Positions 419-34,447 of a DNA stretch of 37,159 nt are shown here, one piece after another. Under the pieces are notes generated by a model that saw only the letters and a list, made by a program, of their open reading frames with translations, was not told the DNA's origin and did not search any database. The stretch lies in contig JACRDV010000029.1 of NCBI GenBank assembly GCA_024860865.1, positions 1 through 37,159 of the forward strand, given 5' to 3'. A program made the position numbers and the translations under genes. Position 1 is the stretch's first letter; every line of letters begins with the position of its first letter. Origin of the DNA: Methanobacteriota archaeon (lineage in GTDB: Archaea; JACRDV01).

Positions 419-493
419 ATGCAAAAAAATAAAACTATTAAATTAGTCATCCTCGTTACAATTGTGGCAATATTATTTCTAGTAATTGGATGA
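419..493 (+). other. 24-codon hydrophobic mini-ORF (MQKNKTIKLVILVTIVAILFLVIG*), probably the displaced signal/anchor peptide of the cytochrome c at 490-696
   Basis: TATA-like TTTTTATATAAG at 386-397 puts a predicted TSS about 26 nt downstream, at the ATG at 419 (leaderless). The ORF stops at TGA 491-493, which overlaps the ATG at 490 (ATGA) in the -1 frame. Confidence 0.4.
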
Positions 494-696
494 TAAACCC
501 ACCACCAACTACAGAAGGAGAGATGCTATATAAAGAAAAATGTAGCAAGTGCCATGAGTTGAGGCCTCCTTTACGGCACACTGCTAACGAATGGCCGACT
601 ACTGTAGATAGAATGCAGTCCAAGGATCCTTTGTGGATTTCAGATACTGAGAAAGAGAAAATTCTAGCATATCTCCAAGCAAACGCGAGAAAATGA
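490..696 (+). CDS. small monohaem c-type cytochrome domain (one CxxCH: CSKCH); no signal peptide in this frame
   Basis: CSKCH haem-binding motif followed by ..EWPTTVDRMQ..ISDTEKEKILAYL, a pattern recalled from small haem-binding domains of bacterial cytochromes. Confidence 0.6.
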   Translation: MINPPPTTEGEMLYKEKCSKCHELRPPLRHTANEWPTTVDRMQSKDPLWISDTEKEKILAYLQANARK

Positions 697-733: not shown

Positions 734-1252
734 TCATGCAATATAACTCATGCTAGACTTATCGAAATCAGGCACCATTTCAATATAAAGTTCTGGTTCT
801 TCTTGTGGCTGCCAGCCTAATTGCCAATCTAATGCTGGATATAATTTCTTGAAAAATTCTGTTGGATTTTTCGAAACTAGTGTAACTAAGTGGTTGGGAC
901 CAAACAAATCGAGAGCGATCTTGTATGCTATCTCCTCAGTTCTATTTTCATCGATATTTCCTAAGGAGTGAATATACTCATGGAGCAAAATATAGAACGC
1001 ATAAGGTTTAAAAAAAGAAGGATCCGCTTCATTGATTAACTTGAGAAGACTTTTATTCATAACAATAATATTTGATCCAACTGGATAAAATGCCCCAATA
1101 AAATAGCCTTTCCTAAAGCCTAGTTCGGCTAGACCTAGCGTTAGTCCAGCCCTTCCAAATCCGTAGATTTTCCGAACAGCATCCTTGACTATTTCAAAAA
1201 TATCCGCTAAACTACCCGCCTGATCGAGTCGCTCGGCGAATGACTTTACCAC
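734..1252 (-). CDS. putative zinc metallopeptidase (HExxH: LLHEYIHSLG), 172 aa, GTG start
   Basis: HExxHxxG motif. Size and layout loosely resemble archaemetzincin or ImmA/IrrE-type small metalloproteases, but the Cys4 site of archaemetzincins is absent. Driven by the dual-operator promoter at 1274-1329. Confidence 0.6.
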   Translation of the reverse strand: MVKSFAERLDQAGSLADIFEIVKDAVRKIYGFGRAGLTLGLAELGFRKGYFIGAFYPVGSNIIVMNKSLLKLINEADPSFFKPYAFYILLHEYIHSLGNIDENRTEEIAYKIALDLFGPNHLVTLVSKNPTEFFKKLYPALDWQLGWQPQEEPELYIEMVPDFDKSSMSYIA

Positions 1253-1273
1253 TTAATCCACCTTTTTTGTTTT

Positions 1274-1286
1274 TTAACGCTGTTAA
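1274..1286. promoter_or_regulatory. operator-like palindrome TTAACGCTGTTAA (TTAAC-N3-GTTAA), promoter-proximal site for the minus-strand gene 1252<-
   Basis: Perfect 5-bp arms. It is the reverse complement of the site at 1887-1899 and lies 43 bp from its partner at 1317-1329. Confidence 0.65.
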
Positions 1287-1316
1287 AAATAAAAAGGAAC
1301 AATATTATATATAAAG

Positions 1317-1329
1317 TTAACGCCGTTAA
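1317..1329. promoter_or_regulatory. operator-like palindrome TTAACGCCGTTAA abutting a palindromic TATA (TATATATAAAG, 1306-1316)
   Basis: Reverse complement of the site at 1844-1856. It sits between the divergent starts at 1252 (-) and 1343/1358 (+). Confidence 0.65.
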
Positions 1330-1357
1330 ACATGGTGATAATTTGAAACCTCCATGT

Positions 1358-1735
1358 ATGGTCGTTGTTACACAAATTTTACCTGCAATCAGAGTTATGG
1401 TGGCAAGAGAGTTAGTATACAACCATGGCTTAAAGCCAATAGAAGCCGCAGTCAAAATGGATGTTACGCCAGCGGCTATAACCCAGTATATTAAAGGTCT
1501 CCGAGGAAAATACCCGATAGAAACGATTGAGAAATCCAGAAAAGCAAAGAAAATTATATCAGAATTAACTATTGAGCTTGTAAAGGATGAAGTAGACATT
1601 ATATTTGTTTTAAATATGTTATGCAAAGCTTGCAAAGCCATTAGTTCTGAAGGCCTTCTTTGTGATCTACATAAAGAGCTAATGTTAAGTCTTAGAAAGC
1701 ACAAATGCAAAATTTGCCCCATGCTTATAAGGTAG
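1358..1735 (+). CDS. small HTH transcriptional regulator with a Cys-rich C-terminal (metal-binding?) tail
   Basis: N-terminal ..ILPAIRVMVARELV..GLKPIEAAVKMDVTPAAITQYIKGLRG has an HTH pattern. The C-terminus has CKAC..C..H..CKIC. The ORF-track start at 1343 is TTG; the in-frame ATG at 1358 is more plausible. Confidence 0.7.
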   Translation: MVVVTQILPAIRVMVARELVYNHGLKPIEAAVKMDVTPAAITQYIKGLRGKYPIETIEKSRKAKKIISELTIELVKDEVDIIFVLNMLCKACKAISSEGLLCDLHKELMLSLRKHKCKICPMLIR

Positions 1736-1843
1736 AAATCTTTTAATTGCTAAATTAACCCAAGAATTCGATCTTGTATTTTTATGGAATTTTGTATTTT
1801 TAAAAAAAATTCTTTTATATTTATAATAACTTGTTTATTAAAT

Positions 1844-1856
1844 TTAACGGCGTTAA
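1844..1856. promoter_or_regulatory. operator-like palindrome TTAACGGCGTTAA directly upstream of TATA CTTTATATAC (1857-1866)
   Basis: The 22-nt block TTAACGGCGTTAACTTTATATA is identical to the minus-strand reading of 1308-1329. Confidence 0.65.
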
Positions 1857-1886
1857 CTTTATATACATTTTTAGAGTAAATTATTT

Positions 1887-1899
1887 TTAACAGCGTTAA
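1887..1899. promoter_or_regulatory. operator-like palindrome TTAACAGCGTTAA over the predicted TSS of the 1912 gene
   Basis: 43 bp from the site at 1844. The block TTATTTTTAACAGCGTTAAAAA is identical to the minus-strand reading of 1269-1290. TATA centre +26 lands at about 1888. Confidence 0.65.
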
Positions 1900-1911
1900 A
1901 AAGTAATAAAT

Positions 1912-3570
1912 ATGCCCGATAAAATCTATTTAAAAGGCTTTCCAGAAATCATGAGATTTAAACTAACAGATGATGTTCGCAATGAGATTTTTGCTGAAGC
2001 ATTTGAAAAAATGAGAGAGCAATATTTAGACGTGAGTGATTTATTAACAAATGAATCCTCAAATCACACCTTATATGGCCAATCTATACACGAGTTTGTT
2101 TTTGGAAGATTTGAAGGTAGAATTTTAAAAGTGTTAGAAGAAGCGCCTTCAACCGGCATTGAAATAGTCCAAAAAACAGGACTATCTCCAAATACTTTTC
2201 GCCATAAAATTGCAGAATTGAAAAGAAAGGGAATGATCGAACGAAGAAATGGCAAATATGGATTTATAAAGAATCCATTCGATCTAATTAAGTTCTCAGA
2301 AATAGGAAAAACTGGCAGCTTAGCACCTACACAACGTAGAAAAAAATTTCTTTCTAAAAATGATGTTAAACTTGCGATATATCTGTGGCCAAAATATAGA
2401 AAAGCATGTGCTGAGGTAGGTATCAGTCCTCTAGTCTCAAAATACGCAATAACTTATCATAATATTTTCTGTCTTGCTAATGCTATCAAAAAGTGGAGAA
2501 AAGGAAAAAACGCAACTCCAAAATGGGCCCTGATAGCATTAACAGACCTAACTCAAAAAGCAAATGAATTAAATGAGGAAGGTATAATCCAGAGCTATTG
2601 TTTGCCGGCAAGTACTCCTATAATTCCTTTTTATAATGGAAAATACAAAATTCCAATCGAAGCTGGAGAAGATTTAGACATAATAGCTATCAAACTATTG
2701 GCAAAAGGTTCAGCAAATGGAACAACTTATAACCATAAAAATAAGGAAAAATTTTTTGAAAGACTTCATGATCTTTTTGGATTTTTTGAAACTAAAAGAA
2801 ATAAAGGAGTTCCAACAACAATTCTGGAGATAATTAAAAAGCACTATAATATTCAAAATTTTGATAAAAAAGAAGCTAAAATTCCTTTAATAATAACTGA
2901 AAAATTAGAGAAATTAAAAGGCTACGAAAAGATAAAATATGAACTGAATTTATTAAAGGGAATAACCGAGCTGAGCAGCAACTATAAGGGATATTTTGAT
3001 CTAACATCTCAATCAAAGGATTTTCTAATTGGCGTATCTAAAATCGTGGAAGATTTAGGATTAGGAAAACTAACTATAATGAAAAAATTAAATAGACCTC
3101 ATTATCGATGTATGATTCCTTCTAAGAAAATTAATTTGCTACAACAAAAGGAGTTGCAATTGAAGAAATTATATGAAAACATAGAGCGAATATATCCAGA
3201 CTTTGAAATTTGGAATAAAATACCCTTAAACACAATAATAGAAAGAGCAAGGAGAAAAGACGTATTAAAATTAACACCAATAGAAGTTTTGCAACAATCC
3301 TGCAAAGAAGAGCTTTCCGATTATCTAGGTTTGATTTTAGATAGCATTAAGCGAAACACGAATAAATATATCCATAATTTTCTAGGAAAAAAGATAAACA
3401 CCTTAGAACTCCAAAAAGAAATGACAAATTATTACTGGAATAACAAAAAAATACCAAGCGCTAGAAGCGTAAAAGAATATCTGAATATGATTGAAACTAC
3501 TGGAGCAAGTGTAGATTCTGAAAAAACTTTATCTCGTTTAGGTTCTTCTTCAAATTTATTAAAACTTTAA
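1912..3570 (+). CDS. 552-aa winged-helix DNA-binding protein with a degenerate double-LAGLIDADG-like core; function unknown
   Basis: wHTH at aa ~65-118 (ILKVLEEAPSTGIEIVQKTGLSPNTFRHKIAELKRKGMIERRNGKYGF). Two LAGLIDADG-like segments (DLDIIAIKLLAKGSANGT; YELNLLKGITELSSNYKGYFDLTSQSKDFLIGVSKIVEDLGLG) have the catalytic acidic positions substituted. Very low GC (~30%). Confidence 0.75.
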   Translation: MPDKIYLKGFPEIMRFKLTDDVRNEIFAEAFEKMREQYLDVSDLLTNESSNHTLYGQSIHEFVFGRFEGRILKVLEEAPSTGIEIVQKTGLSPNTFRHKIAELKRKGMIERRNGKYGFIKNPFDLIKFSEIGKTGSLAPTQRRKKFLSKNDVKLAIYLWPKYRKACAEVGISPLVSKYAITYHNIFCLANAIKKWRKGKNATPKWALIALTDLTQKANELNEEGIIQSYCLPASTPIIPFYNGKYKIPIEAGEDLDIIAIKLLAKGSANGTTYNHKNKEKFFERLHDLFGFFETKRNKGVPTTILEIIKKHYNIQNFDKKEAKIPLIITEKLEKLKGYEKIKYELNLLKGITELSSNYKGYFDLTSQSKDFLIGVSKIVEDLGLGKLTIMKKLNRPHYRCMIPSKKINLLQQKELQLKKLYENIERIYPDFEIWNKIPLNTIIERARRKDVLKLTPIEVLQQSCKEELSDYLGLILDSIKRNTNKYIHNFLGKKINTLELQKEMTNYYWNNKKIPSARSVKEYLNMIETTGASVDSEKTLSRLGSSSNLLKL

Positions 3571-4027: not shown

Positions 4028-5461
4028 CTAACCAGTTTTTCTTCCTACAAGGATTGCTACTACAATTGCACTTATTGCTCCTATTACTATAGCTGCTATT
4101 GACAATGGATATGCTGCCGCAGCCTGTTTAACCCTTGTTTCTATTGCTGCCCCCTCTCTGATTTTTTTAGCCTCATCTTTTATGAAGTTTAGAGATGTTT
4201 TCATTGGCGCCCAGCCATACCAGTGCATATAGTCAGGGTTCATGTGAAAAGCTCCTTGGAAAGTTCTCATTCGGTGCTCTAGAAACATTCCGTAGAGTTC
4301 TTGTTCAATGGGAGATGGAGCTTCGTAAAATGTTAGCAAATCTGGATAGGCATATGCATAGTCCTTTGGCTTGGAAAGCAATCCATCTTTGTATAATTCA
4401 GCAACAGTGGATATGCCTTCAGCCATCAGAGCATCAGCTTGTTTTATGATAGCGTCTGCATTCTCTAGATTTTGCTTAGCATAATTTGCTGAATGGCATT
4501 GACCACAAACATTTAGCATAGCCTCCCTTTGGGCCTGCCATTCTTCTGCCGTTAATCTCGCAACCTTTCCAGCTTTAACCACATCCAGCCTTGCTGTAGG
4601 TTTCCCATCTGGGTCCAATACACCTGTTCCCTTAAGAATTATTGTTCTATAAGACATCCACTCCGAATCAGGTTCTGGTAACCTCACAGCTAAAAAGCCC
4701 CAAGATGTGATTACTTTATGGTTGCCATTTGTCATATGGCAGATTTGGCATGTCGGTGCTGGATATGGATTTTCGCTGAGGTGTTTGTTCCAGTCCCATG
4801 TATCACCTTGCATTGCATAAATTACACCGTGCTTAGAGGTCGAATACATTTCCCATTGAGGGTGATTAAAACCCATGTGGCATGGCAAACATGCTTCAGG
4901 TCTTCTTGCTTCAGCCGTGGAGAATTTATGTCTGGTATGACATGAATCGCAACTACCCATGCCATATCTATACTCTGGTATTCCTGTTTTATTCTTTGAT
5001 CCCATTTTGTGGCATCCTCCACAGCCTTTTTGACCTCCTATTATTGGCTTAGCTTGATGTGTAGTCCCCGGCATTGCATTCATGGCAATCCATGCGAGCG
5101 CGTGCTTACCCTCATTGAATTCTACTACCTTTGGAGCATGGCAAGCATCGCATGTATCTGGCGTCGGCATCTTTGCCTTTGTAAAATCAGCAGCTGAGGT
5201 ATGTTCTGACCCGTGGCAATTTTCACAGCTAATTTGCGATAAACCTCCAGCCATCTTGCTAGCTGTTGGATTCTGTATCCCAGGTGTTCCCATTGCGCCA
5301 CTTTGAAAGGCATCAACAATTTTTGGAGTTATTGTTTTATGGCATGCTATACATGGCGACTCTTCTGCAACTACTTGGGTAGTAATTCCTATTAAGAATA
5401 AAAGTGTCGTTAAAAACGTTACAATTAAAATTTTATTTGAAATTATATTTTCACTTCTCAT
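4028..5461 (-). CDS. octahaem c-type cytochrome, hydroxylamine-oxidoreductase (HAO)-like family, N-terminal signal and C-terminal TM anchor
   Basis: Eight CxxCH motifs (CIACH, CENCH, CDACH, CGGCH, CDSCH, CLPCH, CQICH, CGQCH). HAO-like spacers (CHMGFNHPQWEMYSTSKHG; FHMNPDYMHWYGW). Hydrophobic N- and C-termini. Confidence 0.85.
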   Translation of the reverse strand: MRSENIISNKILIVTFLTTLLFLIGITTQVVAEESPCIACHKTITPKIVDAFQSGAMGTPGIQNPTASKMAGGLSQISCENCHGSEHTSAADFTKAKMPTPDTCDACHAPKVVEFNEGKHALAWIAMNAMPGTTHQAKPIIGGQKGCGGCHKMGSKNKTGIPEYRYGMGSCDSCHTRHKFSTAEARRPEACLPCHMGFNHPQWEMYSTSKHGVIYAMQGDTWDWNKHLSENPYPAPTCQICHMTNGNHKVITSWGFLAVRLPEPDSEWMSYRTIILKGTGVLDPDGKPTARLDVVKAGKVARLTAEEWQAQREAMLNVCGQCHSANYAKQNLENADAIIKQADALMAEGISTVAELYKDGLLSKPKDYAYAYPDLLTFYEAPSPIEQELYGMFLEHRMRTFQGAFHMNPDYMHWYGWAPMKTSLNFIKDEAKKIREGAAIETRVKQAAAAYPLSIAAIVIGAISAIVVAILVGRKTG

Positions 5462-7096: not shown

Positions 7097-8302
7097 ATGG
7101 GAGATTTAAAAAGATTTACTTCTTCTATCCAAGCTGCAATTAAAAAACTCCAAACTTGGCCAATTAGAGAACTAACTCTATGCCATCACGACGAAGCTGA
7201 TGGGTGCACATCGGCAGCTATAACTAAAACTGCTCTCGAGAGGAGGGGCTATAAAGTAAATTTTCTTTGTATAGAGAAGTTATTTCCTCAAGTGCTTGAG
7301 AAACTTCATACGCAAAAAGGGGCTTTAATTTTTTATACAGACATTGGAGCTTTTCACTCGAAACTAATCTCTGATTTAAATAAAGGCAAAAATCTTACAA
7401 TAATTTTAGACCACCATGACACTGAGCCTTCAACTGACTCGATGGTTTTCAATTTAGATCCTGAATTGTTTGGATTTAGTGGCGAAAAAGATGCTAGCAG
7501 CGCGACTACTTGTTATCTATTTGCTAAAGAATTAGATCCAAAAAACATCGATTTAGCTCATCTTGCAATTATTGGTTCAGCTGAAATACCAGGAGATGTT
7601 ACAGGTCTTAACAAAATTCCACTTGAAGATGCACAAAAACAAGATTTAGTTGAGGTTAGTGGTACGAAGGGAAAGCAAAGGTATAAAGTTAAATTACCAA
7701 GTGGAAAAATTTCTAGCACTGAAGCTTCCAGCAAATTGTCTGCGCTTGCATCGGTTGGATATTATGAAAACGGTCCAAAACTTGCGATTAAAGCTTGCCT
7801 AGATGGGTTTGATGAAACTATTGAGAAAAAAATTTTAGAGCTCCAAGAAAAACGAAAAACTGTTAGTAAGAAAATGCTGGCAATTCTATATAAAACCAAA
7901 CTTAAAGAAACTGATCATATTCAATGGTTCCATGCTAAGGACATTTTTAAATCTATGGGTGTTAAAGTTATTGGAACCTTTTGCTCTATGTTGCGTTTTC
8001 AAACCAAATTGATTAAACTGGAGAAATACATTGTCGGGTTTATGAATATGGACCCAGTTATTCCTAGGTATGGAAAATTAGAACAACCAATGACTAAAGT
8101 TTCAATGAGAGTTCCGATTCAACTTGAAAAGTTAATTAATGCGAAGAAAATGCCCGGTGCTTCATATCTCTTGCCTGAAGCTTCAAAGTTAGTAGGTGGA
8201 TTTGGTGACGGTCATAGTTTAGCTTCTTCTTCAATTATTCCAAAAGGGCAGGAAGAAAAATTGATTGATTATATGGAATCGCTATTTAAAAATTTTTCAT
8301 AG
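7097..8302 (+). CDS. DHH/DHHA1 family phosphoesterase (RecJ-like)
   Basis: HHDEADGCTSAA (DHH motifs I-II), ILDHHD (motif III), C-terminal GGFGDGHSLAS (DHHA1 GGGH-like). The ORF-track TTG at 7073 is less likely than the ATG at 7097. Confidence 0.8.
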   Translation: MGDLKRFTSSIQAAIKKLQTWPIRELTLCHHDEADGCTSAAITKTALERRGYKVNFLCIEKLFPQVLEKLHTQKGALIFYTDIGAFHSKLISDLNKGKNLTIILDHHDTEPSTDSMVFNLDPELFGFSGEKDASSATTCYLFAKELDPKNIDLAHLAIIGSAEIPGDVTGLNKIPLEDAQKQDLVEVSGTKGKQRYKVKLPSGKISSTEASSKLSALASVGYYENGPKLAIKACLDGFDETIEKKILELQEKRKTVSKKMLAILYKTKLKETDHIQWFHAKDIFKSMGVKVIGTFCSMLRFQTKLIKLEKYIVGFMNMDPVIPRYGKLEQPMTKVSMRVPIQLEKLINAKKMPGASYLLPEASKLVGGFGDGHSLASSSIIPKGQEEKLIDYMESLFKNFS

Positions 8303-8306
8303 TATG

Positions 8307-8479
8307 AAAAAGAGTTGGCAGTTGCTTTTCTTACTCGAACGATTGGTATCATGTAAACATGAAATTGCCAATTAGATCATTTGTTGGTAAGATTTAGTGA
8401 CCTAATTTGGGTAAGGGGCTTGTGAGTTTAAGATTTTTGAAGTTTGGGAGTTATAAGAACAACTGCCAACTTTTGTTAA
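8307..8479 (-). ncRNA. candidate ~170-nt structured non-coding RNA with termini closed by an 18-bp stem (alternative: MITE-like element)
   Basis: 12-bp perfect inverted repeat AGTTGGCAGTTG (8313-8324) / CAACTGCCAACT (8460-8471), extended by TTCTTA (8328-8333) / TAAGAA (8454-8459). Internal hairpin ATTGG..CATG-TAAA-CATG..CCAAT at 8342-8372. No ORF longer than 3 codons from an ATG. On the minus strand a TATA plus operator cassette lies upstream (8501-8523) and a U5 run (8307-8311) follows the closing stem. Confidence 0.5.
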
Positions 8480-8510
8480 AATAATTTAAGGATGTACCAA
8501 GTATAAAAAG

Positions 8511-8523
8511 TTAACGGCGTTAA
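8511..8523. promoter_or_regulatory. fifth TTAAC-N3-GTTAA palindrome (TTAACGGCGTTAA) with adjacent TATA, same cassette geometry as at 1844-1899
   Basis: The minus strand reads TTAACGCCGTTAA-CTTTTTATAC-21 nt-TTAACAAAAGTTGG. Compare TTAACGGCGTTAA-CTTTATATAC-20 nt-TTAACAGCGTTAA at 1844-1899. The AAATTATTTT(T)AAC block is conserved. Confidence 0.6.
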
Positions 8524-8546
8524 AATTAGTTAAAAACTCTATTAAA

Positions 8547-9968
8547 CTAGCCTAAAAGAGCGGCACGGAAACCTGAAATGCAGTCTTTAGCTGATTGGAA
8601 AAGCAGGTGTTTTATTTTTGTAGGAGTTTTCAGTTTTTCTAACCTGCCAATCCTAAAATAGATCGGTGGATGTGGATCCCATGTTATCCAACTTTGGATC
8701 CTATAAGTTGGTGATCTTTCAAATTGAAGTTTTCGAAATCCAATTTTTCGTAGAGCTTCAGCCAAAACCTGCGGCTGCTCTATTTTAACTGCAGATTCAA
8801 GGTCAGCCCTTGCCTCAAAGAATTTAGCGATGAAGAAAACTATTCCCATGGCAACAAAGAGATATAATAATGGAAAGAATACAACAATTGGCCAAAACAC
8901 ATATAAGCGAAGCAAATATTCAGATGCCGTTAATACAAAGAGATTAAAGGGATCTCTTCCTTTAAGATGGCTAAACTCATGCCCTAAAACGTTAAATATC
9001 TCATATTCTTCCAATTGAACTAGCAATCCTGTAGTAATAAGTATTGTCCCATGACTCGGGCTAGGACCGGAAGCAGCTGCGTTAGGTAGCATTGTATTTG
9101 AAATGACTATTTTGGGCACCGGAAGGTTGAATCTTTCGGCAACCTTTCGCACTAGTTCATAGACATTTATTGTTTTTGTTGAGATGTTCGCTGGTATGCA
9201 TTTGATTCCATATTTAGAAAATACTTCTTCGGCAGTTTGACAGCTGAGTTCTTTACCAACAGCTAGAGTTTTTTCATAGATCTCTTTCTTCATTTCAATA
9301 ACGAGGTCTTTCCCATACTTTTGTTGAAATTCTTTATATTCTTCTACTGGCAAATGATATTGTAATAAGTGAACATTTGGATTTTTAGGTGTTACAGACC
9401 AGTTGCCTAATTTTTTTATGATTTTGTCTGAAAAAAGAACTGTCACAAACTGAAAAGCTACTATAACAATTGGCGCATAAGAACCCAAAAAATAAAACAC
9501 TAAAATACTTGCAGCAATGAAGATTATAAAAAAGAAAAGCATACTATCTGTTAAAATCCTTTCAAGAGCACTTCCACGTTTTGATGGAATTTTTTCAGGT
9601 ATAATTTCTTCGCCTTCGAGCCAGGCAAAGTAAAGAGTAGTTTTTCTAACTTTCTCTTCAAATAGCTGAACAACTATGATTAAGTCTTCTTTCAGTTGAT
9701 CTATGGCTGTTTCAGGCACATTTTCGCTTGGAGACATTTTAACTTGAATTGGTTTTACAGCTTTAATCTCAACATTAATGTACCATTTTTCTTCTGACTC
9801 AAATGCTGTGAAACAGAGGAGATGCTCATTATCTGCAGTTAATTTTTTTATGCTTGCAAAACGTTCTTTGTTAGGGAGCAGATAATACTCATTTATGAAC
9901 TTTAGCAGATCGTCAAGATGTGCTAGCGTGACTTCTGTATCTATTGTAAAACTCTCAGTTTTTCTCAT
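8547..9968 (-). CDS. peptidase M48 (HtpX-like) membrane zinc metalloprotease with extra N-terminal soluble domain
   Basis: LGHEFSHLKGRD (HExxH plus downstream acidic residue, M48 style) and multiple TM helices flanking the catalytic region. Confidence 0.8.
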   Translation of the reverse strand: MRKTESFTIDTEVTLAHLDDLLKFINEYYLLPNKERFASIKKLTADNEHLLCFTAFESEEKWYINVEIKAVKPIQVKMSPSENVPETAIDQLKEDLIIVVQLFEEKVRKTTLYFAWLEGEEIIPEKIPSKRGSALERILTDSMLFFFIIFIAASILVFYFLGSYAPIVIVAFQFVTVLFSDKIIKKLGNWSVTPKNPNVHLLQYHLPVEEYKEFQQKYGKDLVIEMKKEIYEKTLAVGKELSCQTAEEVFSKYGIKCIPANISTKTINVYELVRKVAERFNLPVPKIVISNTMLPNAAASGPSPSHGTILITTGLLVQLEEYEIFNVLGHEFSHLKGRDPFNLFVLTASEYLLRLYVFWPIVVFFPLLYLFVAMGIVFFIAKFFEARADLESAVKIEQPQVLAEALRKIGFRKLQFERSPTYRIQSWITWDPHPPIYFRIGRLEKLKTPTKIKHLLFQSAKDCISGFRAALLG

Positions 9969-30762: not shown

Positions 30763-31653
30763 TTAGGAGTGCTCAATTATCTCTAAAAACGCATCAAAAA
30801 TAGGAGTATCTGATGTTATAGAATAGAAGTCAGCTCCTACATCATCGCAAACTTTTTTTATTGCGCCAGCATGCTCATCTAGTATTTTTTTATAATTAGC
30901 TTTAAAAGCAGGGCTAATATAAGTACGTCTCATTTCAGAAGTTTCGGAATCGTATAACTTTGTATCACCTTCTACTCCTTCTAAGTTTTTTTCTTTAGGA
31001 TCTAAAACTTGGATTAACACTAAATCATGGGATCCTCTCGCGATCTTGTATATGCCAGTATCTAGAGAAGACAAAGGCTCTAAAAAGTCTGAAATTATTA
31101 TTACAAGAGACCTTGATCTAATTATCTTGCTATATTGATCTGCGCACACATTTAACCTTGTTTTTCCCTCAAGAGATGTGCTATTTAACAGCTCCACCGC
31201 ATCTAAAAAGTGTCTTTTACCTCTTCTTGGTTGCATTATGTCCTTTAACTCATCTGAGTATGTTGAGAGCGCAAACCTTTCATTTTCATTAGTCACTAAG
31301 TATGCAAACCCAGCACCGATCATAGCGGCATAATCAAATTTTTTTATCTCTCCAAACTCCATGCTTTTGCTGCAATCAACTAAAATATGGGTTGTGAGAT
31401 TCTTCTCTTCTTCAAATCTGCGAATGTATAACTTCTCTGTTCTGGAATAAACCTTCCAAGCTATTGATTTTATATCATCTCCAGGAAAATATTCTCTATA
31501 ATCGACAGTATCGATGCCTTTTCCTTCCTTTATAGATACTCTTGCGCCAGCGTATATGCTTATTACTCTTTTTTTGACCATAAAACTGAAGCGATCTAAC
31601 TCCTTACAGAAATCTATGTCTATCAATTTATCACAATTTTTGAATGATTTCAT
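30763..31653 (-). CDS. DUF58 protein (vWA-like, MoxR partner)
   Basis: YREYFPGDDIKSIAWKVYSRTEKLYIRRFEEE is the DUF58 signature. Overlaps the MoxR 3' end by 23 nt. Confidence 0.88.
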   Translation of the reverse strand: MKSFKNCDKLIDIDFCKELDRFSFMVKKRVISIYAGARVSIKEGKGIDTVDYREYFPGDDIKSIAWKVYSRTEKLYIRRFEEEKNLTTHILVDCSKSMEFGEIKKFDYAAMIGAGFAYLVTNENERFALSTYSDELKDIMQPRRGKRHFLDAVELLNSTSLEGKTRLNVCADQYSKIIRSRSLVIIISDFLEPLSSLDTGIYKIARGSHDLVLIQVLDPKEKNLEGVEGDTKLYDSETSEMRRTYISPAFKANYKKILDEHAGAIKKVCDDVGADFYSITSDTPIFDAFLEIIEHS

Positions 31654-34447
31654 TTACGACAGCATCTTGAGTGATGCCTTTTCTCTCCGCATCAAAAGTT
31701 AAAATTATTCTATGCCTTAGAATAGGATATGCCATAGCATTGATGTCCTCTTTGCTCACAAAATTTTTCCCTCGTATTAGTGCTCTAGCCTTTGAAGTTA
31801 ACACTAGTCCAATCGAAGCTCGTGGTGAAGCGCCATACTCTATTTTAGTAGCAAAATCTTTAGACCTAGTTGAAGTAACGATGTCTAATGCATGCTTTTT
31901 TATATCTTCAGCTATTGGCATCTGGCGCGTTAAGCGTTGGAGTGATAGTAATGTTTCTTTATCTATGATCTTCTGTATCGCTGGCGCAGAATGGCTGGCA
32001 TACATCTCAACGATTTTATCTTCTTCCTCTTCAGTGGGATAATCAACAAGCACTTTTAACAAAAAGCGATCTAATTGGGCTTCTGGTAATGGATAAGTGT
32101 TATGATTTATACCACAAGCGCCGAAACCAGCTAAGTAATTCTGCAATCCGGGCACAACAAGTCCAAAAACAAGCCCAGAGTAGGGCTTATACTCTATCTT
32201 ATGCACTTTGTCGTAATATATGTCTTCAGTAAGAAGCCCTTGTAAGTAAGCTAATATTTTCTCCGCTTTACTAAGCCTTTGTTTGAATTTTTCTTTAATA
32301 AAATTTTTAAGCTCTATATGACTTGTGCCATTTGTATATAGCTGCCACACAGTGTGTTTAGAAAAATTAGCTTCTCTAGAAATTTCAGTAATTGACAGCC
32401 CACAAAGAATCGCTAATCTATGCGGATCAGTTTGAGCAAGAGTTTCAACATCTAATGTTCTTCTAAAATCAATCTCTTTTCTGAGATCTTCCAACATTAC
32501 CTTATAAAAATATTCAGATATCCTTTCTCTACCTTCTTTAATTGAATTATAACTGCCATACCAAGTTCTTGAAAGGAATTTCTTAGTTCCATATGAGCGG
32601 AAATTTATTAATCCAAGGAGTTTAACTAGTTCAAGTACAAGTTGCCTTGGAATAGGTACAGCTCTAAAGTTAGAATACCTGCTTGACTGTTTACTTAAAT
32701 CAATTTTAAACTGTTCTATCCAACCAATTTTTTTGAGAAATGCATAATAGTCTCGACCCTGAATTTTTAATCTAAAAATCCTTTTTTGATCTTTTATCCA
32801 TGTTAAAATTCCTTCTTTAATAAGCATATGGATTATTACATTAACACTATCTTTATTGACTTGAGAAAAAGTAATTCGATTATCTCTATTGCTAGATTCT
32901 AAAGAAATAAATGTTCGTAAAAATTCTCTTCTTAGATTTGCAGGCAGAGAAAGCATCCATGGTGGAATACCTTTTCCCGGAGCAGTATCAAATCTCAATT
33001 TAAGGTATTCTACCAGCGGTTTGGACCTAATTATAACGGTCCTGCCATCAGGCTCAGATATAACTTCACTAATGTTAATGCCTAACTTGTTAACAGTTAA
33101 TTCAATAAATCTATCTAAAGCTTTGGGATAATTTTTCTGATATGCTGCAACATAATTCTCTGAAATACTGCCGTCTGAGAGCAAGAATGCTATCCAGAAA
33201 ATAAAATCTTCATCAACGTTAAATCTCTTCATTCTAGTGATTTTATAACTTTCAATAAAGTCATATTCGCATTTTGGATGATTTTCTTTAAAGTAGTTTG
33301 TAAGCAAACAATTAATTCGCTCATTTTTTCCGCCTCTTAAGAATTTTATTAACTTCCAATATTCTGATCGCTCTAGTCCTAATTTCTTTAAGAGTTCAAT
33401 TTTGCTAAAACCTAAAGCTATTCTGAGCTTATCAAAGTCAACACCAGTCAAATTGTAAAAATTTGTAAAATTTTTTGTTTTATCTCTTAATTCTTTTATA
33501 TCCTCTAATTTAACAACTATAAACTTTGTGCATAACCTGTTAAGTGCCTCTTCATGATCCATTAACTCAAATTTTTCATCGCCATCGGGAAGCTTTGCAG
33601 GGCATACTAGATAGTCATTGAGAGTGAGTTCTTCTGCTTTTTTCCAAATTATTCGCCCAAAACGGTTCACTAAGAACGGGTGATTTTTAGTAACGGCAAT
33701 AGTTCTACCGGTTCTTGTTGTTACATAAACAATTTCATCATGGTATGGAAGTGTATAGAGCATACAATCTTGTTTTTCTAGGAGGCCGTTTTGATTCAGT
33801 GTAAAGGTCCAAAGCTCTGGGAGATGATAAAGAACCATTTCTCCATTCTTTACTTGAAGTGCCTTTTTGGCTTTAATTAAAAGCTGTGAACCATTTGCTA
33901 TACTGCCATTAACAAAAACCGGTTGTTCCAAAGCTAAACTTCCTTCCATCTCAATCGGATTTTGCGTCGCAAGCACGAAAAATGGTCTGTCAAGTTGATA
34001 CGTTTCATTTCCTGCTGTAACTTGTTTTTCTTGCATTGCTTCAAGCAGAGCACTTTGAGCTTTGGGCGTAGCTCTGTTGATTTCATCTGCTAATACAATA
34101 TTTGCAAAAACTGGCCCCCTCTCAAACCTAAACACTTTTTTACCGCTCTGCTCTTCTATCACATAAGTGCCGGTTATATCAGAGGGCATTATGTCAGGAG
34201 TACACTGGATTCTGCTGAATTTTAAATCCATTATCTTGGCTAGTGTGCTGATCATCAGAGTTTTTCCTAAACCTGGGTAGCCTTCTAATAATGCATGGCC
34301 ATCGCAAAGCAAAGCTATTATTAAGTGTTCTATAGTATTTTTCTGCCCAATAATGCCCTTTCCTATTTCATTAAATACTGTCTCAAATGTTCCACCAATT
34401 GTTTTGTATACTTTCTCATCCAAAACCTCAGTACCCTCAGTACCCAT
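31631..34447 (-). CDS. MoxR-family AAA+ ATPase interrupted by a large intein (exteins 169 + 155 aa)
   Basis: Walker A GYPGLGKT, Walker B LADEINRA. ATQNPIEMEG / TYPLPEAQLDRF would be contiguous in ordinary MoxR proteins. Confidence 0.92.
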   Translation of the reverse strand: MGTEGTEVLDEKVYKTIGGTFETVFNEIGKGIIGQKNTIEHLIIALLCDGHALLEGYPGLGKTLMISTLAKIMDLKFSRIQCTPDIMPSDITGTYVIEEQSGKKVFRFERGPVFANIVLADEINRATPKAQSALLEAMQEKQVTAGNETYQLDRPFFVLATQNPIEMEGSLALEQPVFVNGSIANGSQLLIKAKKALQVKNGEMVLYHLPELWTFTLNQNGLLEKQDCMLYTLPYHDEIVYVTTRTGRTIAVTKNHPFLVNRFGRIIWKKAEELTLNDYLVCPAKLPDGDEKFELMDHEEALNRLCTKFIVVKLEDIKELRDKTKNFTNFYNLTGVDFDKLRIALGFSKIELLKKLGLERSEYWKLIKFLRGGKNERINCLLTNYFKENHPKCEYDFIESYKITRMKRFNVDEDFIFWIAFLLSDGSISENYVAAYQKNYPKALDRFIELTVNKLGINISEVISEPDGRTVIIRSKPLVEYLKLRFDTAPGKGIPPWMLSLPANLRREFLRTFISLESSNRDNRITFSQVNKDSVNVIIHMLIKEGILTWIKDQKRIFRLKIQGRDYYAFLKKIGWIEQFKIDLSKQSSRYSNFRAVPIPRQLVLELVKLLGLINFRSYGTKKFLSRTWYGSYNSIKEGRERISEYFYKVMLEDLRKEIDFRRTLDVETLAQTDPHRLAILCGLSITEISREANFSKHTVWQLYTNGTSHIELKNFIKEKFKQRLSKAEKILAYLQGLLTEDIYYDKVHKIEYKPYSGLVFGLVVPGLQNYLAGFGACGINHNTYPLPEAQLDRFLLKVLVDYPTEEEEDKIVEMYASHSAPAIQKIIDKETLLSLQRLTRQMPIAEDIKKHALDIVTSTRSKDFATKIEYGASPRASIGLVLTSKARALIRGKNFVSKEDINAMAYPILRHRIILTFDAERKGITQDAVVNEIIQKL
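32099..33940 (-). mobile_element. 614-aa LAGLIDADG-type intein inserted in MoxR (Ser1 ... His-Asn / Thr+1)
   Basis: Starts SLALEQPVFV (block A) and has TKNHPFLV (block B). LAGLIDADG motifs FIFWIAFLLSDGSI and EFLRTFISLESS. Ends VFGLVVPGLQNYLAGFGACGINHN, then T+1. GC is visibly lower than in the exteins. Confidence 0.85.

Follow-up and report, generated by a model that had tools for sequence, protein, structure and literature searches.

A cysteine-rich helix-turn-helix protein and its probable operator in outward-facing promoter cassettes of an archaeal contig

Organization of the locus

The contig JACRDV010000029.1 from the assembly of a Methanobacteriota archaeon (GCA_024860865.1) was analysed from position 1 to 37,159, a stretch called the window here. 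Its region 1261-1911 contains a small gene for a helix-turn-helix (HTH) protein, flanked by two inverted copies of a promoter-like cassette. The cassettes face outward, towards a gene for an HExxH protein on the left and a gene for a 552-aa protein on the right, and each contains two copies of the palindrome TTAAC-N3-GTTAA. The HTH protein probably shuts off its own gene, the metalloprotease-like HExxH gene and the 552-aa gene by binding to these palindromes, as judged from the position and distribution of the sites. The features of the locus are listed below (TSS, transcription start site; TFB, transcription factor B; BRE, TFB recognition element).

734 to 1252, minus strand: HExxH gene, encoding a minigluzincin-like putative metallopeptidase of 172 aa; GTG start at 1252, with a GGTGG Shine-Dalgarno sequence at 1258-1262, 5 nt upstream
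1274 to 1286, no strand: putative operator O1, TTAACGCTGTTAA; proximal site of the leftward promoter, on the predicted TSS of the HExxH gene (TATA centre 1311.5 minus 26, about 1285-1286)
1305 to 1316, no strand: palindromic TATA, TTATATATAAAG; the minus strand reads TTTATATA (1315 to 1308); likely a bidirectional core promoter, leftward for the HExxH gene and rightward for the HTH gene
1317 to 1329, no strand: putative operator O2, TTAACGCCGTTAA; placed against the leftward promoter on its BRE/TATA side and, seen from the HTH gene, downstream of the TATA and 14 nt before the start at TTG 1343
1343 to 1735, plus strand: regulator gene, encoding an XRE-type HTH protein of 130 aa (recognition helix VTPAAITQY) with an N-terminal MKPPC and a C-terminal CxxC...C-x2-H...CxxC
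1771 to 1806, plus strand: two tandem T-rich repeats of 18 nt (ATYTTGTATTTTTA...), found by repeat search directly 3' of the HTH stop codon
1844 to 1856, no strand: putative operator O3, TTAACGGCGTTAA; distal site of the rightward promoter, one base (C) from the TATA box
1858 to 1865, plus strand: TATA box TTTATATA of the 552-aa gene promoter, by direct reading
1887 to 1899, no strand: putative operator O4, TTAACAGCGTTAA; proximal site, beginning at the predicted TSS (TATA centre 1861.5 plus 26), 13 nt before ATG 1912
1912 to 3570, plus strand: gene of the 552-aa protein, with one winged HTH (wHTH) domain at residues about 70-120

The initial annotation had described four palindromes in two pairs, each pair spaced 43 bp from start to start, as well as two 22-mers shared by the cassettes and outward gene borders at 1252 (minus strand) and 1912 (plus strand). 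All of this was exact when the sequence was read directly and searched by pattern and script. The central triplets of O1 to O4 are GCT, GCC, GGC and AGC. The pattern search of the window also returned a fifth exact palindrome at 8511-8523, absent from that annotation. Five exact sites compare with 0.04 expected, and none of 100 dinucleotide shuffles of the window reached five.

When both cassettes were read outward, each opened with the 22-mer TTAACGGCGTTAACTTTATATA, which occurs once per strand (1844-1865, and as the reverse complement of 1308-1329), and each contained the 22-mer TTATTTTTAACAGCGTTAAAAA (1881-1902, and the reverse complement of 1271-1292). In a script alignment, 49 of 62 positions were identical. 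The 22-mers matched at 100%, whereas only 5 of the 18 positions of the intervening spacer did, which fits selection on function, the operator and TATA 22-mers having been kept while the spacer diverged. A repeat search returned the same likeness as two pairs of inverted arms of 30 nt, each 90% complementary (1263-1292 with 1881-1910, and 1301-1330 with 1843-1872). The TATA box TTTATATA agrees with the archaeal TATA consensus. Oligo-T stretches are an established termination signal in archaea, and the T-rich repeats at 1771-1806 are likely an oligo-T terminator separating the HTH transcript from the right cassette. Rfam, searched with the window at gathering thresholds, gave no family for the cassettes, and no tRNAs were found.

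The regulator and its family

The initial annotation had rightly placed an HTH gene between the cassettes, at 1358-1735, with a product of 125 or 130 aa. The upstream TTG at 1343, giving 130 aa, is preferred to the ATG at 1358 as the start because the N-terminal MKPPC is conserved among homologues. The record of the contig at the National Center for Biotechnology Information (NCBI) likewise has a 130-aa protein (MCS4540987.1, 'hypothetical protein HY929_01490'), assigned to a Euryarchaeota archaeon metagenome-assembled genome (MAG). A 158-aa open reading frame (ORF) lies antisense to the HTH gene (1246-1722, minus strand). It was chosen as the gene instead of the HTH ORF in a near-identical assembly (L089, 98-574), a call that is likely a mis-annotation or artefact.

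The best sequence matches of the regulator among solved structures were lambda-repressor-like and Xre proteins, in the HTH part only. Of 52 family members, 30 matched the Pfam model HTH_3 (PF01381) with E-values no higher than 1e-3, the best being 8.6e-8. No model of Pfam or NCBIfam spanned the whole regulator, generic HTH matches being the only ones obtained. The AlphaFold2 (AF2) model (predicted local distance difference test, pLDDT, 95) was all helical with eight helices. Helices 32-39 and 43-51 of this model span the conserved VTPAAITQY, and a helical DNA-binding core with its recognition helix is thus predicted to be present. A Foldseek search of the model against solved structures gave no match better than E = 1.1.

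The C-terminal part of the protein is a module of C94-x2-C97, C107-x2-H110 and C122-x2-C125. Together with C5, these residues (H110 or Cys at its position) were conserved in 43-51 of the 52 diverse members, with Cys5 kept in 46. An Fe-S cluster-sensing regulator of the IscR or SufR kind would have three or four conserved Cys/His ligands; the six Cys and one His/Cys found here provide such a set of putative ligands.

A word-based search returned three relatives of the regulator only. A full scan with a profile hidden Markov model gave 1,161 representative clusters (50% identity) at an E-value of 1e-3 or better. Among the 120 best matches listed by a profile search, the few named by organism were MAGs of Bathyarchaeia and Nitrososphaeria, and the annotations were generic. 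Literature searches on the motif, on archaeal suf/cys regulators and on archaeal XRE proteins with iron-sulfur (Fe-S) clusters found no characterized member of the family. DUF2193, which surfaced in these searches, is unrelated to the regulator. Within the literature searched, no description of the family, of its sensor module or of its operator appears to exist.

Occurrence of the palindrome in related loci

Loci encoding relatives of the regulator were collected from genomes (three loci, all Bathyarchaeia), from metagenomes (80 loci) and, for several contigs, by exact protein look-up. After removal of duplicates, 78 distinct loci remained, encoding homologues of the HTH protein at 42-66% identity. 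The 250 bp upstream of the HTH genes (18.8 kb in total) contained 128 exact sites, against 7 in the remaining 403.6 kb, a difference of approximately 390-fold. Most of these 7 were extra cassettes of the window and of L088, the locus of a 66% identical orthologue. The central triplet was mostly GGC, GCC, AGC or ACC, which gave the operator consensus TTAACGnCGTTAA. The motif was retained in GC-rich Bathyarchaeia loci.

Twelve of the 78 loci had no exact upstream site. Thirteen such loci were inspected, counting one later dropped as a duplicate: seven (one being the duplicate) had TTAAC-N4-GTTAA, two had TTAAC-NG-TGTGA, one had a site with one mismatch and one had no upstream DNA on its contig. 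The loci of the N4 subgroup (L022-L024, L032, L034, L037 and L038) each have one operator, in which the half-sites are unchanged and the spacer is 4 nt long (TTAACATACGTTAA or TTAACGTACGTTAA), set against ATATATA. Within it, the L022 and L037 groups are divergent from nitroreductase or flavodoxin genes.

The genes divergent from the regulator varied. They encoded a cysteine-synthase-like PALP enzyme in 28 loci, a multi-wHTH protein in 16, a ThiS/MoaD-like protein in 5 and SufC with SufBD in 3; nitroreductase and flavodoxin genes were found in 3 loci each, and NifU_N and sulfite-reductase-like genes in 2 each. In L062, L071, L081, L084 and similar loci, the PALP enzyme is fused to an N-terminal ParB_N (ParB/sulfiredoxin-like) domain, which is unusual. 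The small HTH gene was the sole gene common to all site-bearing loci. Since the site persists beside changing neighbours, the palindrome is best read as the regulator's own operator. In two distant members of the family, with the recognition helices ISQSAVSMY and ITQTAVSKY, the palindromes were ATTAC-N4-GTAAT and ATGAC-N4-GTCAT, which occupy the corresponding position beside the TATA box of each locus. These pairs, each a single case, fit co-variation of recognition helix and half-site.

The comparison of related loci, which the initial annotation had proposed as a check, showed the site or a close variant upstream of nearly every homologue and a changed half-site alongside a changed helix in the two distant members. 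It is strong indirect evidence that the palindromes are the operator of the 130-aa HTH protein, and it supports the proposal that this protein targets both outward promoters and its own gene. The near-identical assembly L089 (99.8%) differed by 19 single-nucleotide polymorphisms, too few for covariation. The regulator belongs to a widespread, uncharacterized family of Cys-rich archaeal regulators, mostly adjoining sulfur and iron-sulfur genes.

In L088, the operator and the first 8 HTH codons are present as a direct repeat (1-55 and 1176-1230) flanking a gene pair of the toxin-antitoxin-like type UPF0175/DUF3368. This suggests an insertion into the regulator promoter region or an assembly artefact.

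Geometry of the promoters

In archaea, the distance from the centre of the TATA box to the TSS is usually about 26 nt. The TSSs predicted in this way, at about 1285-1286 (leftward), 1887-1888 (rightward) and 8479 (a third cassette, around the fifth palindrome), each fall on the first bases of the proximal site. The arrangement first described for the window, with the distal site at the BRE/TATA and the proximal site on the predicted TSS, recurred in L088 and in 16 other loci. The suggestion that the HTH gene uses the palindromic TATA at about 1305-1316 likewise matched the shared bidirectional TATA of most related loci. An A-rich box at 1287-1295 is a possible alternative TATA for the HTH gene, in which case O2 would sit on its TSS.

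Three architectures were distinguished among the loci. In architecture (a), found in most of them, two sites 15-23 bp apart (N4-8 between them) are followed by ATATATAA, with the HTH start about 30 nt further on. The distal site often touches the ATG of the divergent gene. For that gene, the interval from TATA to start is filled by the operators, which on the regulator's own promoter extend over the BRE side; one palindromic TATA (ATATATAA) seems to serve both directions. In architecture (b), found in sixteen loci, the HTH gene has a site at -28 with a TATA some 25 nt ahead of it. A further pair of sites, 36-37 bp apart and with an AT-rich (TATA-like) box between them, faces the divergent multi-wHTH gene. 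Architecture (c) is that of the window, with the order site-C-TTTATATA-20 nt-site, and of L088, in which sites 38 bp apart precede the HTH gene, while a homologue of the HExxH protein (59%), encoded on the other side of the regulator, has a site-TATA-site cassette (41 bp) of its own facing it. O2 has a counterpart in L088 and in the 16 loci of architecture (b), namely a site placed 24 to 28 nt upstream of the start codon. Taken together, the positions of the sites argue for repression and autorepression. A strict requirement for 43 bp is probably not to be expected, because the spacing of the sites varies across the family.

Outward genes and other genes of the window

The HExxH protein had 310 homologues, all annotated as 'hypothetical' and sharing an MVKSF N-terminus, which form a widespread archaeal family of about 167 aa with invariant H91, E92, H95 and E102. 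It had no sequence-level match to solved structures. The best folds for its AF2 model (pLDDT 86) were selecase, jannalysin and abylysin, with probabilities of 0.95-0.99, E-values of 0.04-0.09 and template modelling (TM) scores on the target of 0.55-0.68. In two other lineages (four loci, L090-L093), the HExxH gene adjoins, or lies one gene from, the gene for the Fe-S protein ABCE1/RLI; these loci have no sites.

The 552-aa protein, annotated as 'winged helix-turn-helix domain-containing protein', is a singleton cluster with weak wHTH matches in Pfam (LexA_DNA_bind, 8e-5; HVO_A0261_N, 5e-4). It had no sequence match among solved structures and no relatives in any fetched locus. Its comparison with the multi-wHTH proteins of architecture (b) gave an hhalign probability of 4%, and the two are not homologous.

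Elsewhere the window consists of ordinary chromosomal DNA, with genes of the archaeal shikimate pathway, MoxR-VWA genes, cytochromes, a RecJ-like protein and an HtpX-like protease. The cytochromes include a small mono-haem cytochrome c (CxxCH; 490-696, plus strand) and a 477-aa multi-haem cytochrome (4028-5461, minus strand), weakly similar to octahaem enzymes of the hydrazine/hydroxylamine type. The MoxR-type AAA+ ATPase (AAA_3 and AAA_lid_2; 31631-34447, minus strand) is interrupted by an intein (Intein_splicing, residues 199-783) and lies in a MoxR-DUF58-VWA/BatA cluster. No mobility genes (transposase, integrase) were found among the proteins of the 37 kb.

A third cassette and a candidate RNA

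The fifth palindrome belongs to a further cassette, followed by a candidate RNA.

8466 to 8523, minus strand: third cassette, partly degenerate; exact site (8523 to 8511), C, TTTTTATA (8509 to 8502) and degenerate proximal site TTAACAAAAGTTGG (8479 to 8466)
8307 to 8479, minus strand: candidate structured non-coding RNA of about 173 nt; closing stem of 11 bp (8470-8460 with 8324-8314), then T5

The proximal site of the third cassette follows 44 bp after the distal one, and the third and right cassettes share TTAACGSCGTTAAC-TTTWTATAC and TAAATTATTTT(T)AACA. On the minus strand, the stretch of the RNA candidate contains no ORF reaching 30 aa. Its minimum free energy was -37.8 kcal/mol (z = -5.9 against shuffles), and Rfam in E-value mode on 8250-8560 gave no match for it. 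In L088, a leader of about 140 nt with an analogous closing stem lies downstream of the HExxH gene's cassette. The two RNAs share a 5' UCUYAUAACUCC and a 3' GAGURAGAAAA, with one exchange of U-A to C-G; the common closing stem was seen in folds of single sequences only, and in two sequences. We tentatively suggest that the third cassette may drive a new regulated structured RNA.

Alternative explanations

The same protein and sites could also form a dual regulator or activator, in which the protein, bound at the distal site just upstream of the BRE/TATA, would recruit TFB and the TATA-binding protein (TBP), as Ptr2, TFB-RF1 and SurR do at the promoters that they activate, and the proximal site alone would repress. 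Every cassette as well as architecture (a) has one site directly upstream of a TATA box. SurR of the Thermococcales, a sulfur regulator with a cysteine switch, both activates and represses (PMC12162507). The distance of 0-1 bp between site and TATA in our loci, however, means that the BRE is overlapped rather than preceded by the site. Each outward promoter of the window also has a site on its predicted TSS, and in architecture (a) the sites fill the interval from TATA to start of the divergent gene, both of which are positions of repression. We consider activation unlikely, though still worth weighing.

It is very unlikely that the palindromes are bound by another factor, such as the 552-aa protein, with the small HTH gene as a mere target. 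The 552-aa protein does have a wHTH domain, and a multi-wHTH protein is divergently encoded in 16 related loci. These two are not homologous, however, and the 552-aa protein is without relatives in any other site-bearing locus, the small HTH gene being the only gene that all such loci share. The distant members, moreover, pair a different recognition helix with a different half-site.

The initial annotation had offered, as a second reading, that the cassettes are terminal inverted repeats of about 56 bp belonging to a tiny element that carries the HTH gene. The 22-mers are indeed identical in inverted orientation, and the two pairs of 30-nt arms, of 90% identity, lie approximately 590 and 510 bp apart. 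This reading, of a mobile or formerly mobile element, was rejected, and we give it hardly any weight: the window encodes no transposase or integrase and its content is chromosomal, no direct repeat (target-site duplication) flanks 1263 and 1910, and the likeness is confined to the operators and TATA boxes, the spacer having diverged. The third cassette, furthermore, is solitary, the 78 related loci have sites only upstream of the HTH gene and no inverted pairs, and the HExxH gene of L088 and its cassette are arranged differently.

That the sites are chance or low-complexity features of an AT-rich intergenic region (31-32% GC, with many TTAA-like strings) has a negligible probability and is refuted by the shuffles and by the distribution of 128 against 7 sites, the central triplet being GC-rich and conserved and the motif kept in GC-rich Bathyarchaeia loci.

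Proposed mechanism

The explanation that best accounts for the whole, and which we hold to be probable, is that of a palindrome-binding XRE-type repressor that controls both cassettes, itself and the RNA and senses through a metal centre on its cysteines. The 130-aa protein would recognize the 13-bp palindrome TTAACGnCGTTAA as a dimer. The cassettes would be promoter-operator modules of one design, with one operator on the BRE side of TTTATATA and a second 43 bp away at the start of transcription. With both sites occupied, access of TFB/TBP and recruitment of RNA polymerase would be blocked, which would switch off the HExxH gene to the left and the 552-aa wHTH gene to the right. The site at 1317-1329, between the shared TATA and the regulator's own start codon, would bring about self-repression, and the third, weaker cassette (8523-8466) would place the structured RNA candidate under the same control. 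Cys5, the CxxC, the C-x2-H and the second CxxC may hold a metal centre whose state sets DNA binding, possibly by a logic like that of IscR or SufR, in which the protein represses as long as it carries the centre and frees its promoters once the centre is lost.

The conserved Cys/His residues most likely hold a metal centre, for which an Fe-S cluster is favoured; zinc or a thiol switch is possible. Because the protein has six Cys and one His, and because its relatives' targets concern cysteine synthesis, SUF/NifU and sulfur carriers, the residues and neighbourhoods suggest that the regulator is a sensor of sulfur or Fe-S status. More tentatively, and with somewhat less than even confidence, the family may be an archaeal sulfur/Fe-S sensor, analogous to IscR/SufR/CymR but built on an unseen sensor fold, which in the lineage of the window would have been rewired from cysteine-synthase and SUF genes to a minigluzincin-like protease, a large wHTH protein and a structured non-coding RNA of about 170 nt.

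Several points weigh against this explanation in whole or in part. A purely structural zinc site is equally compatible with the residues. We infer the sign of the regulation (repression) from the position of the sites only, and the start sites, the binding as a dimer and the ligand are predictions as well. A site upstream of the TATA box is a position that archaeal activators use too. The match of the window protein to HTH_3 (E = 0.041, 14.4 bits) lies below the Pfam cut-off of 23 bits. The spacings in the family (15-23, 36-38 and 41-44 bp) keep no single helical phase, and the exact 43 bp of the window may have been inherited from a common ancestor of the two cassettes instead of being required. 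The targets of the window (a metallopeptidase-like protein, a wHTH protein and an RNA) are not the sulfur and Fe-S genes of most relatives, and none of the HExxH homologues of other archaea (L090-L095) had operator sites. The HExxH target is lineage-specific on account of these homologues, and both observations make the physiological signal in this organism uncertain.

Significance

To our knowledge, binding sites are known for very few transcription factors of uncultivated archaea, and the regulation of cysteine synthesis and Fe-S assembly in archaea is largely unexplored. Here, sequence alone served to define a regulator-operator pair, on strong statistical grounds, in a large family whose members are annotated only as 'HTH domain-containing' or 'hypothetical'. 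With the operator TTAACGnCGTTAA, regulons can be predicted in MAGs of Bathyarchaeia and in related ones, which abound in anoxic sediments. Judged by these operators, what is controlled would be cysteine synthesis, Fe-S assembly by SUF/NifU and sulfur-carrier proteins. The Cys6-His module, with no solved structural relative, is a concrete target for biochemistry. Within the window, the odd-looking inverted repeat can be explained as ordinary, neatly built promoter architecture, and a possible new regulated RNA was flagged.

Comparison with known systems

The closest known relatives of the HExxH protein are the minigluzincins (selecase, projannalysin and proabylysin). Like them it is small, soluble and archaeal, has a Glu downstream of its HExxH motif and is predicted to share much of the core fold. 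It is about 60 residues longer, however, the Foldseek E-values (given above) being only modest, and its activity is putative.

MDR1, LrpA, Phr, TrmB/TrmBL1 and NrpR are archaeal repressors of bacterial type whose palindromic operators overlap the BRE/TATA or the TSS. The system of the window resembles them in its small HTH protein, its palindromic operator, by prediction on or just downstream of the core promoter, its predicted autoregulation and its divergent targets. What sets the regulator apart from these repressors is its DNA-binding domain, an HTH of the XRE/Cro type where they have winged-helix, Lrp or TrmB domains, and its Cys6-His C-terminal module, which belongs to no curated family. 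The window also uses a two-site 'sandwich' around the TATA box. By its site positions, the mechanism would be of a familiar kind, that of an autoregulated HTH repressor occluding archaeal promoters.

The bacterial regulators of Fe-S and sulfur status include IscR, RirA and CymR of the Rrf2 family and the cyanobacterial SufR. They share with the regulator a conserved cluster of Cys (plus His) in a small DNA-binding protein and autoregulation, predicted in its case, from a divergent promoter, and the putative targets of its relatives include SufC/SufBD, NifU/IscU-like proteins and cysteine synthase. None of the window's own targets, by contrast, is an isc, suf or cys gene. The regulator had no Rrf2 or SufR (DeoR-type) match in Pfam or NCBIfam and no fold match among solved structures, and is not counted as a member of either group.

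SurR of the Thermococcales controls sulfur-related genes by a cysteine switch, autoregulates and recognizes the motif GTTn3AAC (PMC12162507). Each monomer has two ArsR-type wHTH folds (residues 1-75 and 166-219) and a single CxxC disulfide in the DNA-binding domain (PMC12162507). No sequence or fold relation to the regulator was detected, and a single XRE-type HTH in 130 aa, as opposed to two ArsR-type wHTH folds, places the latter outside SurR. The core of the palindrome is also the opposite one, AAC-n3-GTT inside TTAAC-N3-GTTAA instead of GTTn3AAC. The two systems are nevertheless alike in a Cys-based switch (putative in the regulator), in GTT/AAC triplets with a 3-nt spacer and in autoregulation (predicted for the regulator), and by this analogy SurR is the nearest functional analogue of the regulator.

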